Positions 339-58,218 of a stretch of DNA of 64,000 nt are shown one piece after another. Source of the stretch: a phage. Position 1 is the first letter of the stretch; each line of letters starts with the position of its first letter. Where the stretch lies: the sequence record OZ413487.1. One strand, given 5' to 3'. Both the position numbers and the translations under genes were made by a program. The notes beneath the pieces were generated by a model. That model saw only the letters and a list, made by a program, of their open reading frames with translations. It ran no database searches and was not told the origin of the DNA.

Positions 339-2408
339 AAATTTATGGCATCTGCATACAACCGTTTCGGTGAGCCAAACCCGAAAGCAACTAAGTATAA
401 AAGTGGGGGAAGTGTGAAACGAGACTATCGTGATGAAAAAGAGATTGAAACTGTAGAGACTGTTTTAGAAAATACTAAAATCGTCCCTGTCCCACAACAA
501 AATATCGGTCTGATGGCTGCACAATATTTTGGTGTGCGATCAGCATTGTCCCAAGAAGACGGTGTGACAGTTACTGCAACATATTTCCCATATTACGACC
601 GCTACGGGAATCTGTCCGGTTTCAAAAAGCGTGACTGGACGATTCCTAAAGAGCAAAGGGGCCATTTCTCCGTTGTTGGCATAGTAAAGGCCAACTCCCA
701 GATGTTTGGTCAAAAGCTGTGTGCATCTTCCAACAACCGTAAGCAGATTAACGTTTGTGAGGGGGAAGGTGATGTTATTGCAGCATGGCAGGCTGCATAT
801 CAGATACAAGTAAAAGGGATTCTCACCAACGCTAAAGCCCCGGCAAAGGTGAAGCAGTGGGCTAAAGAAGTCCAGGACGGGATCGATGCAGTTATCAACG
901 GTGGTGATCTGGCAGGAAAACCATGCCTGCCTTTTGTTGGAATTAACTGTGGATGTGCAAACGCAGTAGATACTTTTGCAAACAATGAGAAGTTTATCCG
1001 TAGCTATGGAACAGTTGTGCTGGCAATGGATAACGATGCAGCTAACGAGGTAGAGAAGCAAAAACACGTCATTAAAGGTGTTGAGGCCACGCACAATATC
1101 GCAGCATTTTTGATGGCTGATAACGTTTACCACGTAGAATACCCTGGTGAAGTAAACGACCCTGACGGTGTAAAAGATATCCGAGACATGCTGAAGGCTA
1201 AAAAGCTGGAAGATATTGTCAACATGTTCCGGCATCCTGTTAAATATGTGCCTGATGCGGTGTCGGATTTAGAAGACTTCTCTATCGAGTCTTTGCGGAA
1301 AAAGACTTCCAACGGGGTAGATATCAGCGCAGAGTTCCCAAAACTGCAAAAAATGCTAAAAGGCTTGCACAAAGGGACACTCGTAATGCTTACAGGTCCA
1401 TCAGGTGGCGGTAAAACAACCGTAGCTAAAAAACTGGAACACTGTATTGCAAGATACCTAATGGACCCGACATGCCCGAAGGCTGATGACTATGAAGAGG
1501 ATGATCGTCTATGTATGATCCATCTTGAGGAGGACCCAGAGGAAGCAATTAACTCCTTGTATGCAAACCAGTTAGGGTTTGATGTTAAAGAGTTTGTTGA
1601 AGATCCTAGCCAGTTTTTAACTGATCAAGAACACGCAGAGATTCACCAATCATGGGCAAAAGCTGGAAAAATCAAAGTGTTCAAACATTTCGGGTCTATT
1701 CCGGTGGATGAGTTGATTACCAAGCTTAAGCAAATGGTTTGCCTGTACCATTGCCGTTATATTGTGCTGGATCACCTGTCCATGGTAATTTCAGGGCTTA
1801 ATGTTAAGGATGAGCGAAAAGAACTGGACATGGCTATGACTCAGCTGGCTGCGTTTTGTAAGCAGTTTAACGTGTTTATCTTGGTGATCGCTCACCTCAA
1901 ACGTACAGAGATTGTGCCTCCTAAGGACAAGGATGGTAACCCGTTACCTTTCTGGTATCCTGTGCGAAAAGAGAATTTGCGAGGATCGGCGGGGCTTGAA
2001 CAGTTGAGTTGGGTAGTCATAGGTGTCGAGGCCGAAGAAATGGTGGATCGTTCTCGTGGACGTGTCCGTCTGGTAGGTCTTAAAAACCGTCCAGCAAAAA
2101 CTCTAGGTATTGCTGACACTTTGGTTATGGACCCGCACACAGGTAAGTTCCATGATGCCAGTAATTGGTACTGGGACAAAGAAATGCAGATGTTTACAGA
2201 CGGAGAAGGTGGGGAGGTTGTTTGGAGACCTCAGGCCATGTTTGAGGACCAAGAGCATGCAGTTGTAGAAACACCTATGGGCAAGGTTGTAGCCGATAAG
2301 GTTGTAACTCCTACTATTAAGCCTGTTGACACGCAGGAAGACCTCCAGTACGATGATCCATCCTCTGATCCGGTCCCCGGTTTTGAGGATGATGAAACAC
2401 CTTTTTAA
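330..2408 (+). CDS. DNA primase/helicase fusion (toprim primase domain + DnaB-like helicase)
   Basis: Toprim motifs VCEGEGDVIAAWQ and VLAMDNDAAN; Walker A GPSGGGKTT; Walker B IVLDHLS; acidic C-terminal tail ending EDDETPF. Confidence 0.8.
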   Translation: MGSKFMASAYNRFGEPNPKATKYKSGGSVKRDYRDEKEIETVETVLENTKIVPVPQQNIGLMAAQYFGVRSALSQEDGVTVTATYFPYYDRYGNLSGFKKRDWTIPKEQRGHFSVVGIVKANSQMFGQKLCASSNNRKQINVCEGEGDVIAAWQAAYQIQVKGILTNAKAPAKVKQWAKEVQDGIDAVINGGDLAGKPCLPFVGINCGCANAVDTFANNEKFIRSYGTVVLAMDNDAANEVEKQKHVIKGVEATHNIAAFLMADNVYHVEYPGEVNDPDGVKDIRDMLKAKKLEDIVNMFRHPVKYVPDAVSDLEDFSIESLRKKTSNGVDISAEFPKLQKMLKGLHKGTLVMLTGPSGGGKTTVAKKLEHCIARYLMDPTCPKADDYEEDDRLCMIHLEEDPEEAINSLYANQLGFDVKEFVEDPSQFLTDQEHAEIHQSWAKAGKIKVFKHFGSIPVDELITKLKQMVCLYHCRYIVLDHLSMVISGLNVKDERKELDMAMTQLAAFCKQFNVFILVIAHLKRTEIVPPKDKDGNPLPFWYPVRKENLRGSAGLEQLSWVVIGVEAEEMVDRSRGRVRLVGLKNRPAKTLGIADTLVMDPHTGKFHDASNWYWDKEMQMFTDGEGGEVVWRPQAMFEDQEHAVVETPMGKVVADKVVTPTIKPVDTQEDLQYDDPSSDPVPGFEDDETPF

Positions 2409-2466
2409 TGTTTAACAAAGAGTGGGAGGGGTAGTACAACCGCCTCCCCTTTAAGGAGAACTGTAT

Positions 2467-4890
2467 ATGAGCATGTGGTCGTTCGACTTTGAGTCATCCG
2501 GTTTGCTGGAAGACCCAGATCTTTATTATCACTGCGGCCTGTTTAAAGAGCTGAATAAGAACCGTTTTATGCTGTTCCTTCCTCTAAATGACCGCACACA
2601 CTACTCCGAGGAGGATATAGAAAAGGCTAAGAACTTCATTCTGGCAAAGAAAACTCTTTATAAAGATTTTGAAGTTCGCATAGCAGATTTTTCAGAGTTG
2701 GAAGGTTGGCTTACAGGAAATTCTGACTGGTCACCAACAGCTTTGAACTGCCATAACTGCTACAGTTATGACTTTATGCTGATGGAAAGATTATCTGGTA
2801 TTCATTTTGATATGTTCCGTGATCCTAAATGTATGGGGACTATCAACGATCACCAGGTTAACCTGTTTGATACGTTGGCGATGAGCCGAATCTTGTGGCC
2901 TGATCGCCCTTTACCAAAAGGTTGTCCGGACTCTGTATTCAACCCGGTTACTAAGAAAATGCAGCCTGTTGGTCCTCACGGCCTTATGGCATGGGGCTAC
3001 GCCCTTGGTAACCAGAAAGTTCAAATTGATGACTGGCGCGATCTTCCGTTGTGGAAGTATGTGGATCGTGTATTCGAGGACGTTATCATCCAGGAGCTGC
3101 TCTGGAAAGAGCTGGTAGCGGAATCAAAAGGTGTATTCTACGGCAAATCTGACATGCAGAACTTTATGTACGATCCGGCCAAAGAGAAGCCGAAAGGGTT
3201 CAAGAAGATCACCTGGAAGAACGCATTACGTCGAGGCATGCTGCAGCACTTCCTGATGGAGCTGCAGGCCCGTCAGGGTGTATACTTCGACATAGATGGA
3301 GCTATTGCTTTACGTGACCGTTGCGATGCGTGGATGAAAGAAATCGCTGATCGTGTTGAACCACAACTACCTTTAAAAGAGCTGTCAATGTCTCAGCGGC
3401 CCAAGTTCCCTGAAAAGCCGTTTAACCAAGACGGGACAATCTCTAATAATGGTTGGAAATGGTTAAAAGATAAGCTTGGCTATCCTGTAGACATGAGTGC
3501 TTTAGAGTTCAAAGCCCTGCCTAAGCGAGCATTTACCTCTACAGGAGATGTCAGCAAGATGGGGATAAAATGGTGTGAAGAGATGGGCTGCAAAGACCCC
3601 GATAAGATGGCTGATTTCTTGAGAGGCTATATTAAGGGCACCTCCACACCACAACCCTTACCTAAAGAGCTGATGGATCAGGCAATAAGTGATCTGCAGC
3701 AGAAGCGAATGCCTGACTGCAAGATACCTATGAAAATCAGCAATCAGGACGACATCAAGCGATACCTAATCAGTGCTGGTTGGCTCCCAACAATGTGGAG
3801 AACTAAAGATGTAACTAAAGACAGCAAGAAGAAAGCTTTACCTGATGCAGATGTTGATGCACGAGTATATGCATATATGGACGAGCTTTTGGAGTCAGAG
3901 TATTGTGACCTAATTATCAACTTCTGGAACAAAACTGATGCTAAGTTCCAGACAACCGTGCACAAGTTCCGAAGCTTTCCTAACTCCGAAAGGATTAAAA
4001 AGGAAGTATTCGGGAAAATACGTAGAAAAGCCAGGGCACTTATTACTTCTCCGCAACTGAAAGATACGTTTGGACACCTATGCCCAAATCTTGAAAAATT
4101 GAACGGAGAGATGGCTAAAGATATCGTCTTGTGGTTATCATTGCGAAACCGCAGATCGGTCCTTGATCCAATCAAGGAGGATAAGGTTGATACTGGTCTT
4201 CTTAATCACCCACGTTTGAAGATTGACCATAAGCTTCCTGCTAAAAGCTCTGGATTAACAAACACTTCCAGACAGAAACACAGTATTTGTGCAAACATGC
4301 CTAAACCATCTCCTAAAGTAGTTATGGGTAAAGAGATGCGTAGTCTGTGGGGTGTTCCTCCAGGATACTTTGAGATCGGTATTGACGGGTCCAACTTAGA
4401 GCAGCTCATCGGGGCTTGGGGTGCCTTTGAGTTCGACAACGGCTTGTATTATGATGTTGTAAGTAACGGAGACGCACACCAAAACAATGCTGAGGCATAT
4501 ACAAAAGTGGCAGGCAGAGAGGTGTCCCGTAACGACGGTAAACCTATCACGTATGGGGTTATGTACGGGGCACAAAAAGATAAAGTTGCAGATATGCTGG
4601 ACATCTCCCCAGAGTTGGGACAAAGGGTAATCGATGCACTCTGGGATGCCAACCCAGGTCTTAAGGGGCGCAAAGAGGATCTGGAGAAATTCTGGGAAGC
4701 AACAGGTAAGAAGTTTATCTACTCTTTTGATGGTCATGCTATCTGGACCCGATCTAAACACTCTTTACTTAATGCATACCAACAAAATGGCGGTGCATCG
4801 TTGTGTGACTTAGTTGGAATACTCATGCACCACCAGATGGTGAAGCGTGGGTGGTACGATGAAGGTGTTCGTCGTATTATTTATTACCAT
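2467..4890 (+). CDS. DNA polymerase, family A, exon 1 (3'-5' exo + polymerase motifs A and B, up to His of motif C)
   Basis: N-terminal exo I motif FDFESSGL; motif A GIDGSNLEQ; motif B RNDGKPITYGVMYGAQ; ORF ends ...RRIIYYH-K-stop where family A polymerases have VHDE. Confidence 0.8.
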
Positions 4891-5166
4891 AAATAACATT
4901 GTGGCTTCATAGAGTAATCTATGTCGAATAACCTCTTTAACTGCGGGAAGCCTAAACCTTATGGCAAGGTAATCCGCAACGAAGCGCTCAAAAGAGCGAA
5001 CGCTCAGAGGCCATTCCGAAAGGAAGTAGACCAGCAAGTGCGGTCGAAATGGGAGGATTCCTGTGGTTGCTTATCATAGGAATATGAGATGGTCCGATCC
5101 TACGTGAAAACGTATGGCTATGCACGTAATGGTGCGGGGTAGCTTAACGACCTACCTGAACTATTG
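4891..5166. other. putative group I self-splicing intron in DNA polymerase gene
   Basis: Exon 1 ends in U (4890); intron ends in G (5166); internal guide CAUUGUGG (4897-4904) can pair with exon-1 end CCAU (P1, U.G at splice site) and exon-2 start GAUG (P10); four in-frame stops; splicing restores YYH-DEYQLQV. Confidence 0.55.
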
Positions 5167-5520
5167 GATGAGTACCAACTTCAAGTGCCTGACACACCGA
5201 AGTATAAGACTGTGTACACCTTCGACACAATTGAAGAACTGGAAGCATTTAAGGCAGAGCAGGAAGCCAAACTTCATGTGTTCGACGGTCATAAGTACAA
5301 AAAGGCACGCAAGGATGAGGACGGAAACGAAGTGGTTGACAGAGACGGAAACACGGTGTACGATCCTATCCTGAACGATGACGGAAAGCTTGAACTTATC
5401 TGGAGCCCTGTGGGTGAAATGGTGGTACATTGCTTCTGGCAAGCTTCTAAAATGATGGGAGTCCCGTTCCAGATCACAGGTGAATACTTGTGTGGTCGTA
5501 ATTGGGGTGATTGTCACTAA
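5167..5520 (+). CDS. DNA polymerase, family A, exon 2 (motif C Asp-Glu and C-terminal end)
   Basis: Same frame as exon 1; begins DEYQLQV (T7 pol has HDEIQVG); ends GRNWGDCH, like T7 pol C-terminus GPNWAICH; ORF-track start 5164 is the TTG ending the intron. Confidence 0.6.
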   Translation, partial: DEYQLQVPDTPKYKTVYTFDTIEELEAFKAEQEAKLHVFDGHKYKKARKDEDGNEVVDRDGNTVYDPILNDDGKLELIWSPVGEMVVHCFWQASKMMGVPFQITGEYLCGRNWGDCH

Positions 5521-5569
5521 TGTAAACTATCAACACATGGAAGTGTTGTTGAGCAAAGAGGAGACTTTT

Positions 5570-5854
5570 ATGGTAGTAGAACCAACAAAAACATTTACAT
5601 CCATGACTATCCCTGTTATTATGCAGGTGGAGTGTGTTCAGGTATCTCAAGTGTGGCCTGGCACCAAAATCCCAACAGGGCCTGATTTCTTTCAGGTTGG
5701 GAAAGTGTACAATGTCTGGAAGGCACCAGATTGTTACCCTTTCATTAAAGATGACCGTGGGATGCTGTGGTACCTTGGAAATGACTTGACACTGCACCTT
5801 GGGAATACTATTATTGCAGTATTCAGACTTAACAAGAAGGAGACCGATCAATGA
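5570..5854 (+). CDS. hypothetical protein
   Basis: ORF track 5480..5854; start moved to ATG with GAGGAG RBS. Confidence 0.4.
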   Translation: MVVEPTKTFTSMTIPVIMQVECVQVSQVWPGTKIPTGPDFFQVGKVYNVWKAPDCYPFIKDDRGMLWYLGNDLTLHLGNTIIAVFRLNKKETDQ

Positions 5855-57519: not shown

Positions 57520-58218
57520 TTACAAGCTTTCAGTAAGAGCCTTTGCGTAACACGCTTCAGCAGACTCTTTGGTGTCAAACCTGCCTAACGTTTTTCCTCT
57601 GAAAGTTACTTTCCATTTGCCCCTGTCTGCTTCAAATCTGACACCTCTAGATTTATCCCTCCCTAAAGGCTGTCCACGATATTCCCTGACAAACGTGCCA
57701 CTTTCAAAAGACTTTTGAGCAGCAATGGCCTCTTCTAAGGTATCGTATTCTCCTAAATCTTTCTTATAGTAATGACCTACCTTACCAAAAGCAGCATACC
57801 TTCCAGATCTAGCATGAAAATATACACCCAAATGTCCAGTATTGGATTTAGGTATCTTGCGTGCCAGGCATCCGTCATCTGCCGCCTTTTTTGCATTTTC
57901 TTCTGGTGTTAACAGTTGTAGGTTTTCTACCCTATCATCCGCAACACCATCGGAATAGAAAAGTGGCTTTATGTGATCAACTTCGTACCCTTCTGGGATT
58001 GGTCCATAGTGCATCTCCCACACCAATCTATGCCTGTAGTAATGCACGCCACAATAGACTATATCCCTGTACCCGTCCATGTTAGTACATCCAGCCTCCT
58101 TTCCCAGTAGTTGAGGTTTGTTTTTTGGCGGGGACTTCCAAAACAACCTTCCAGTTCCTGTATCGTATCTAAAGACACTCCACCAGTTAATCCCGTTACT
58201 CATCTGTAACAACTCCAC
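57520..58218 (-). CDS. HNH homing endonuclease with AP2 DNA-binding repeats
   Basis: HNH core HRLVWEMHYGPIPEGYEVDHI...NLQLLTPEEN; two AP2-like repeats (GRYAAFGKVGHY...EAIAAQKS; GKWKVTFRGKTLGRF...AEACYAKA). Confidence 0.75.
   Translation of the reverse strand: MELLQMSNGINWWSVFRYDTGTGRLFWKSPPKNKPQLLGKEAGCTNMDGYRDIVYCGVHYYRHRLVWEMHYGPIPEGYEVDHIKPLFYSDGVADDRVENLQLLTPEENAKKAADDGCLARKIPKSNTGHLGVYFHARSGRYAAFGKVGHYYKKDLGEYDTLEEAIAAQKSFESGTFVREYRGQPLGRDKSRGVRFEADRGKWKVTFRGKTLGRFDTKESAEACYAKALTESL

Follow-up and report, generated by a model that had tools for sequence, protein, structure and literature searches.

Group I introns in family A DNA polymerase genes of phages have been described previously. 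The T7-like phages phiI and W31 are reported to carry, at Pol I site 881, self-splicing introns of subgroup IA2 whose P6a holds an HNH gene (PMC3428280). Introns of the same subgroup, likewise with HNH genes, occur in the family A polymerase genes of the Bacillus phages SPO1, SP82 and Bastille, cyanophage Pf-WMP3 and Xanthomonas phage phiL7 (PMC3428280). These endonuclease-bearing introns lie at a site in the fingers subdomain (674 in Pf-WMP3 and 676 in phiL7) and not in motif C. For the intron of phage CB7 that contains the gene CB7_50, RT-PCR and Sanger sequencing have demonstrated splicing (PMC7344957). For phage rV5, the 2013 paper reports introns in the terminase gene only and gives the polymerase as 775 amino acids (aa), and the rV5 reference records show a 775-aa polymerase and, in the region of the intron and exon 2, small ORFs annotated separately.

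The stretch of phage DNA analyzed here (the window, 64 kb in full) contains at positions 4891-5166 what is almost certainly a group I intron of subgroup IA2 in a family A DNA polymerase gene. As phage group I introns go it is an ordinary one: its subgroup and the type of site that it occupies are both known, and identical copies of it have already been annotated. The introns of phages LL12 (MH491969) and RudolfGeigy (MZ501102, from the BASEL collection) are 100% identical to it and share both its insertion site and its exon junction, and the deposited proteins (AXC42883.1 for LL12 and QXV84155.1 for RudolfGeigy) match the predicted splice products exactly. In the LL12 record the CDS is in two parts and is annotated 'intron-interrupted gene; intron splice site predicted based on homology', and the RudolfGeigy record has a joined CDS; in both, the joined CDS stands alone, without intron class, ribozyme structure or splicing evidence. 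The CB7 intron interrupts the same junction between the motif C His and Asp-Glu, begins with the same first bases (AAGUAACAUUGUGG) and is ~75% identical over 73% of the intron; CB7_51 terminates in RRIIYYHK and a stop, and LLDEYQLEV is found within CB7_49. It differs from the window's copy in length (687 nt vs 276 nt) and in its HNH gene (CB7_50), which occupies the P6 region; at that place the window's copy has a 5-bp P6a hairpin instead. As for the T7-like phages, we take Pol I site 881 to be the motif C His (H881-D882-E883 in E. coli numbering). The introns of phiI and W31, as reported, share with the window's intron the family A polymerase and subgroup IA2, with site 881 corresponding to the motif C His, and the P6a location of their HNH genes recurs in relatives of the window's intron; they carry an endonuclease gene whereas the window's intron does not.

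Over positions 2400-5600, the window matches Escherichia phage rV5 and O157 typing phage 5 (Vequintavirus) at 98.8% identity, and this region is mostly covered by more than 100 related records. Judged by this similarity, the source phage is evidently an rV5-like Vequintavirus, i.e., a coliphage. The features of the locus are as follows:

330-2408: DnaB-like primase/helicase gene (Pfam DnaB_C and AAA_25), upstream of the polymerase gene
2467-4890, plus strand: exon 1 of the family A DNA polymerase gene; 808 codons, ending ...RRIIYYH, last base U4890
4891-5166, plus strand: predicted group I (subgroup IA2) intron, 276 nt, based on Rfam, intron-less alleles, covariation and the minimum-energy fold
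4894-4896, plus strand: in-frame UAA, one codon into the intron in loop L1, ending translation of unspliced RNA after 809 aa
5166, plus strand: terminal G at the 3' splice site, fixed by intron-less alleles
5167-5520, plus strand: exon 2 of the polymerase gene; 117 codons plus a stop (5518-5520), DEYQLQV...GRNWGDCH

The original prediction, which was made from the sequence alone, described a polymerase ORF that stops one codon past the motif C His and an Asp-Glu and C-terminus that resume 276 nt downstream. Both the sequence and the ORF list agree with this description: the ORF at 2467-4896 terminates in RRIIYYH-K-stop (CAT 4888-4890, AAA 4891-4893 and TAA 4894-4896), and DEYQLQV follows from 5167, in frame, at an offset of 276 nt (92 codons) that leaves the frame unchanged. 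The predicted splice product is a polymerase of 925 aa in which exon ligation rebuilds the His-Asp-Glu of motif C. The suggested correspondence with the HDE of T7 DNA polymerase was also borne out when the spliced protein was aligned with it, as IIYYHDEYQL aligns with the T7 sequence MAWVHDEIQV across the junction and through HDE. The T7 polymerase has GPNWAICH at its C-terminus. The Pfam DNA_pol_A alignment covers residues 620-742 with exon 1 alone and extends to 620-822 in the spliced protein, for which the score is 31.8 bits, below the 34.3 cut-off.

The exact ends of the intron are given by relatives that lack it, which were found by tblastn with the predicted spliced junction peptide (a 208-aa query). 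This query matched without interruption in, among others, phages pangalan and A12a (100% identity) and MaxBurger and typing phage 4 (99.5%). Pangalan and typing phage 4, which have no insert, read continuously from CCAT into GAC, which sets the limits of the intron at exactly 4891-5166. Around the junction, the empty alleles have ...TATTACCAT followed directly by GACGAATATCAG..., compared with ...TATTACCAT, the 276 nt, and then GATGAGTACCAA... in the window; as filled and empty alleles differ in the neighboring bases, no other placement of the boundary is possible. The insert follows a U (U4890) and ends in a G (G5166), as had been proposed. The terminal G is kept in 13/13 homologous introns examined (this copy included), and AAAUAA or AAGUAA is found in 11 of 12. 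The alignment with intron-less polymerases that the original prediction recommended supports the same junction: the spliced 925-aa protein shows 3 differences from the uninterrupted pangalan protein (also 925 aa) and 6 from that of typing phage 4, and the nearest of these differences is 52 residues from the junction.

A covariance-model scan for the group I core, which the original prediction also recommended, was positive. Rfam RF00028 matches positions 4881-5116 with 64.7 bits (gathering score 50) over model positions 1-253 of 253, with an E-value of 7.5e-16 over the 1.2 kb searched, or 4e-14 for the whole window. The Rfam model stops at P9, and the remaining 50 nt comprise the P9.1 and P9.2 hairpins and then the terminal G. 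The elements of the ribozyme fold are listed below, with the evidence for each (changes refer to base pairs in the alignment of homologous introns):

4887-4892 / 4899-4904, plus strand: P1, with the 5' splice-site wobble U4890.G4901; Rfam alignment and minimum-energy fold
4897-4904, plus strand: internal guide, of which GUGG 4901-4904 pairs with CCAU 4887-4890
4897-4900 (CAUU) with exon 2 GAUG 5167-5170: potential P10, 4 bp
4908-4912 / 4919-4923, plus strand: P2, 5/5 pairs changed on both sides, 100% paired; minimum-energy fold
4932-4937 / 5051-5056, plus strand: P3, 3/6 pairs changed on both sides, 100% paired; Rfam structure
4942-4947 / 4973-4978, plus strand: P4, enclosing P5; Rfam alignment and minimum-energy fold
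~4950-4953 / 4967-4970, plus strand: P5, short, exact pairing ambiguous
4980-4981 / 5001-5002, plus strand: P6, pairs changed on both sides in CB7 and SPA01
4985-4989 / 4994-4998, plus strand: P6a, loop AAAA, the position of the HNH gene in relatives
G5007 and 5009-5013 / 5090-5095, plus strand: P7, A5008 bulged; 6 pairs, 100% paired, 2 changed on both sides
5014-5017 / 5022-5025, plus strand: P7.1, GAAA loop; minimum-energy fold
5026-5028, plus strand: GUA linker between P7.1 and P7.2, invariant in 12 introns
5029-5032 / 5042-5045, plus strand: P7.2, 2 pairs changed on both sides; minimum-energy fold
5057-5067 / 5073-5083, plus strand: P8, 6 of 7 counted pairs changed on both sides; minimum-energy fold
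5099-5105 / 5110-5117, plus strand: P9, U5115 bulged; 5/8 pairs changed on both sides
5121-5125 / 5132-5136, plus strand: P9.1, 2 pairs changed on both sides, 100% paired; past the end of the Rfam model
5138-5142 / 5152-5156, plus strand: P9.2, 3 pairs changed on both sides, 100% paired; past the end of the Rfam model

What characterizes subgroup IA2 is a pair of additional helices, P7.1 and P7.2, that lie between P7 and P3 and are joined by G-U-A (PMC3428280), and the presence of P7.1-GUA-P7.2 places the window's intron in this subgroup. The energy-only fold of 4885-5170 is more stable than its shuffles (z = -3.24), and the minimum-energy structure recovers P1, P2, P3, P4, P5, P6a, P7.1, P7.2, P8, P9, P9.1 and P9.2. 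P7 is missing from it because P7 is a pseudoknot, which is beyond the method. The original prediction had also named an 8-nt guide at 4897-4904 in the P1/P10 arrangement of group I introns. This guide is present: GUGG pairs with the CCAU at the end of exon 1 (including the U.G wobble) and CAUU can pair with the GAUG at the start of exon 2, a potential P10 that in relatives amounts to only 2-4 bp. The P5 region is much shorter here than in most relatives, and the GAAA tetraloop of P9 (5106-5109) is invariant. By analogy with standard group I architecture, the pair G5009-C5094, next to the P7 bulge, would be the guanosine-binding pair.

Pairs were counted in a MAFFT alignment of 12 introns against a hand-drawn structure of 57 pairs. 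Endonuclease ORFs were excised before alignment, and the P6a of ORF-bearing relatives lay outside the pair count; the count also excludes P5, P7.1 and the inner pairs of P4, because MAFFT gave inconsistent registers there (a one-base bulge in P4 and length-variable segments). Standard pairs occupy 98.6% of the pair cells (57 pairs, 12 introns), and 30 of the 57 pairs have changed on both sides, with compensatory changes in each of P2, P3, P6, P7, P7.2, P8, P9, P9.1 and P9.2. When the 3' partner was slid by 1-3 columns as a control, only 34-43% of cells remained paired and 1-11 pairs were changed on both sides. For four of five measures, no column shuffle out of 500 attained the observed value; the fifth, the number of additional pair types, was attained in 163/500. 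In P4, the pair G4945-C4975 is U-A in 7 of 12 homologues, as seen by eye in the alignment. All six P1 pairs are invariant in the 12 introns and covariation is thus uninformative for P1, either way; such invariance is expected because P1 overlaps the Tyr-His codons. This pattern as a whole points to strong selection on the intervening RNA for the ribozyme fold.

The steps by which the window's own copy would splice can be inferred from the standard group I pathway. The polymerase gene would be transcribed as a single RNA, in which the intron would fold into the P1-P9.2 ribozyme. The pair G5009-C5094 of P7 would bind a free guanosine, which would attack the bond 3' of U4890; this U would be held in P1 by the wobble U4890.G4901. 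The terminal G5166 would next occupy the guanosine site and the guide at 4897-4900 would align exon 2 through P10, so that ligation would give ...UAC CAU/GAU GAG.... The ligated exons are predicted to read ...UAUUACCAU/GAUGAGUACCAA (the slash marking the junction in each case), with the junction peptide IIYYHDEYQLQVPDTPK. In family A polymerases, the catalytic carboxylates reside in the His-Asp-Glu of motif C. Ligation would restore this motif together with the 925-aa polymerase, whereas unspliced RNA would yield an 809-aa product that stops at the UAA in the P1 loop and lacks the motif C Asp-Glu.

As an alternative, the original prediction allowed for a genuinely split polymerase, in which the polypeptides of 2467-4896 and 5164-5520 would be made separately and then assemble. 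Such an arrangement reportedly exists in Aeromonas phage Aeh1, whose intron-split NrdA has been described as separate polypeptides that assemble, and the annotation of two separate ORFs in many records (e.g., rV5 RefSeq and typing phage 5) would agree with it. It is contradicted by the uninterrupted 925-aa proteins of near-identical sister phages and by the nature of the intervening RNA, which contains a full group I core with strong covariation and appears to be under selection as an RNA, not as a spacer. Furthermore, a split between His and Asp-Glu would sever the catalytic motif. A TTG at 5164 is a formally possible start for exon 2, but no Shine-Dalgarno-like sequence was seen by eye before it in 5140-5166, and this region is locked in P9.2. 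One phage HNH insertion without splicing is cited in PMC7344957, but the same source shows that the CB7 homologue, at the same site as the window's intron, does splice. We consider a split polymerase extremely unlikely. We give a negligible chance to an intein, or to translational bypassing of 4891-5166: the length of 276 nt is divisible by three, but an in-frame UAA lies one codon into the insert with more stops beyond, no Hint/intein domain is present, the 52-aa internal ORF belongs to no family and is unconserved, and the RNA fold accounts for the insert fully.

There is also a very small chance that the intron is a decaying relic that self-splices inefficiently and needs factors of the host or phage, or whose presence largely disables the polymerase. 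The lack of an endonuclease gene and the shortening of P5 relative to the 329-nt and 842-nt variants could be read in this way, but the core helices and conserved joining segments are all intact, and equally small ORF-less copies of 253-254 nt are maintained in Vibrio phages. Moreover, at least 23 phage genome records, submitted independently, contain copies of at least 99% identity. A relic is unlikely because identical copies sit in the apparently sole polymerase gene of many sequenced isolates; no second polymerase gene came to light, and splicing thus looks essential. Taken with the splicing of its CB7 homologue, an intact group I intron whose removal yields a complete polymerase is the reading that we retain, and the window's own copy probably splices.

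Introns homologous to this group I intron are widely distributed at the same position, as the His/Asp-Glu junction is occupied by 11 homologous introns in Vequintavirinae, Vibrio and Pseudomonas phages. The 276-nt form occurs in at least 23 other phage genome records at 99% identity or more, and this number of sequenced copies argues for a functional polymerase. Within Vequintavirus, the same site holds the 276-nt form, an ORF-less form of 329 nt (JLBYU08) or an 842-nt form with an HNH gene (I29 and HeinrichReichert). Distant carriers include phages 18-1-2 (Avunavirus), SSE121 and PVP-SE1 (Seunavirus), and A5-4, CR9 and CB7 (Certrevirus), and further carriers are Vibrio phages K412, 10AMN and qdvp001 and Pseudomonas phage SPA01 (Pakpunavirus). 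The homologues are found in phages of Escherichia, Salmonella, Cronobacter, Pectobacterium, Vibrio and Pseudomonas. The distant homologues begin with AAAUAA, AAGUAA or, in 18-1-2, AAACAA, and end in UG. A blastn search of the intron against the phage collection matched no T7-like phage. To Bacillus and Pseudomonas jumbo phages, the same search gave short matches only. The motif C His/Asp-Glu junction of family A polymerases is thus a recurrent landing site, used in myophages of enterobacteria, Vibrio and Pseudomonas by related IA2 introns with an HNH gene, a LAGLIDADG gene or no endonuclease gene.

The prediction that an insert of 276 nt cannot carry a homing endonuclease gene also held. The sole ORF inside the intron (4921-5079, 52 aa) was considered as a gene and rejected, as it has no Pfam family, is shortened or changed in frame in those homologues that keep its AUG, and has no AUG in the others. 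A tblastn search with 11 endonucleases from related loci gave no match in 4891-5166. The window's copy is therefore without a homing endonuclease gene, one of the marks of mobile group I introns. In all copies of the HNH-bearing relatives, complementary stems flank the ORF, which forms a loop extending from the P6 region (P6a), and in PVP-SE1 a LAGLIDADG gene follows the 5' strand of P7.

Empty, 276-nt, 329-nt and 842-nt alleles are all present at this one site, and the polymerase regions of these phages are ~96-99% identical. Filled and empty alleles differ in a synonymous block at the start of exon 2, which reads GAT GAG TAC CAA in 8 of 9 intron-containing alleles (GAT GAA TAT CAG in JLBYU08) and GAC GAA TAT CAG in both empty alleles (2/2). 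Going by these codons, the block fits either co-conversion or protection of the target site. The window's intron would be inherited vertically or through recombination with co-infecting relatives, and it may be that the HNH enzymes of sister introns could mobilize it in trans. A more specific scenario, which we regard as doubtful, is that the ORF-less intron is a mosaic 'hitch-hiker' spreading among Vequintavirus populations via an HNH enzyme supplied in trans (by the 842-nt sister intron or by a free-standing gene such as the one at 57520-58218), with the four synonymous changes in exon 2 representing a co-conversion tract or protection from cleavage. If this scenario were true, it would represent collaborative homing at a polymerase active-site codon common to several phage families.

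General knowledge of group I introns is unchanged by this finding, and its consequences mainly concern annotation. In rV5 and many of its relatives, the 'hypothetical' ORFs rv5_gp222, gp221 and gp220 are really the intron and exon 2. Recognizing the intron corrects the truncated polymerase annotations as well as the pangenomes and phylogenies that rest on them. Across the whole 64 kb window, the Rfam scan returned no family other than the group I intron, and no tRNA genes were found. A free-standing HNH gene is located in the window at 57520-58218.

Selfish elements seem to have a hot spot at the polymerase locus of these phages. The following were located in the window and in extracted loci of related phages.

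Window 57520-58218, minus strand: free-standing HNH ORF of 232 aa (Pfam HNH_3, 50.2 bits)
Navn (L010) 368-1102, equivalent window site 2409-2466: HNH/AP2 endonuclease gene between the primase/helicase and polymerase genes
Typing phage 4 (L009) 1-453, equivalent window site 2409-2466: HNH/AP2 endonuclease gene between the primase/helicase and polymerase genes
Salmonella phage PVP-SE1 (L022) 851-1444: LAGLIDADG endonuclease gene, carried by an intron that is homologous to the window's copy and shares its insertion site in the polymerase gene
241Ecol014PP (L011) about 2381-3349, equivalent window site 4479/4480: 323-codon insertion within exon 1, in frame

In the PVP-SE1 intron, the LAGLIDADG gene lies 3' of the 5' strand of P7, instead of an HNH gene in P6a. 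Therefore, two endonuclease families, unrelated to each other, have invaded one ribozyme lineage, each at a different loop. The ORF at 57520-58218, which also has a weak AP2 domain match and shares 36% identity with the navn HNH gene, is a homing-endonuclease-like gene that is distant from the intron. Another HNH gene is found directly downstream of the polymerase in 241Ecol014PP. The 323-codon insertion in that phage is probably an intein; it follows ...SNGDAH, begins with CYSGDTQIL, ends with ...VAVCGN before a Cys, and gives a weak match to Hint_2. At 4479/4480, the window carries no insertion.

The start of exon 2 was compared between the window (5167-5178) and the two intron-less alleles, pangalan (L008) and typing phage 4 (both 2874-2885). 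Eight of the nine intron-containing Vequintavirus alleles examined begin exon 2 with GAT GAG TAC CAA, JLBYU08 has GAT GAA TAT CAG, and both intron-less alleles have GAC GAA TAT CAG; the differences among filled and empty alleles are synonymous throughout. As a whole, this synonymous block has the look of a co-conversion tract, or else of changes that protect against endonuclease cleavage. The T at position +3 is common to all nine intron-containing Vequintavirus alleles (Pseudomonas SPA01 has GAC), and this base completes the proposed P10 pairing.

Segments of the intron were also found, at roughly 73-80% identity, in the introns of other phage genes:

Vibrio phage 1.161.O (L020) 1501-1584: 3' P9-P9.2 module, within a ribonucleotide reductase small-subunit gene that is split
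Escherichia phage Av-05 (L023) 1501-1633: 5' half of the intron, within a large terminase gene that is likewise split

This recurrence of intron parts suggests that phage introns may exchange modules among themselves. The P9 loop (5106-5109) is an invariant GAAA, and in relatives the P5 region has CUAAG...UAUG, similar to the 11-nt GAAA tetraloop receptor. P5 of the window is shortened, with the halves CCUAAA and UAUGG (4951-4964) just 3 nt apart. The P5 pairing is ambiguous here, and the L9-P5 contact is at most a candidate.

In the rV5 RefSeq annotation, exon 2 is rv5_gp220, and two further small ORFs are recorded as hypothetical proteins:

Window 4921-5079: rv5_gp222, in the intron
Window 5114-5374: rv5_gp221, across the 3' end of the intron and exon 2

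The small ORFs annotated over the intron and exon 2 look like artefacts of an unrecognised intron. The 52-aa ORF inside the intron has no match in Pfam, and homologous introns do not conserve it. The rV5 reference records place the start of the polymerase at an internal ATG, so that the protein has 775 aa.

It should also be noted that sixteen MG0656xx records are named 'Campylobacter phage' and carry the host label Campylobacter jejuni. These labels look doubtful; over the polymerase region the records share 96-98% identity with E. coli rV5-like phages. The identical intron is present in several of them.
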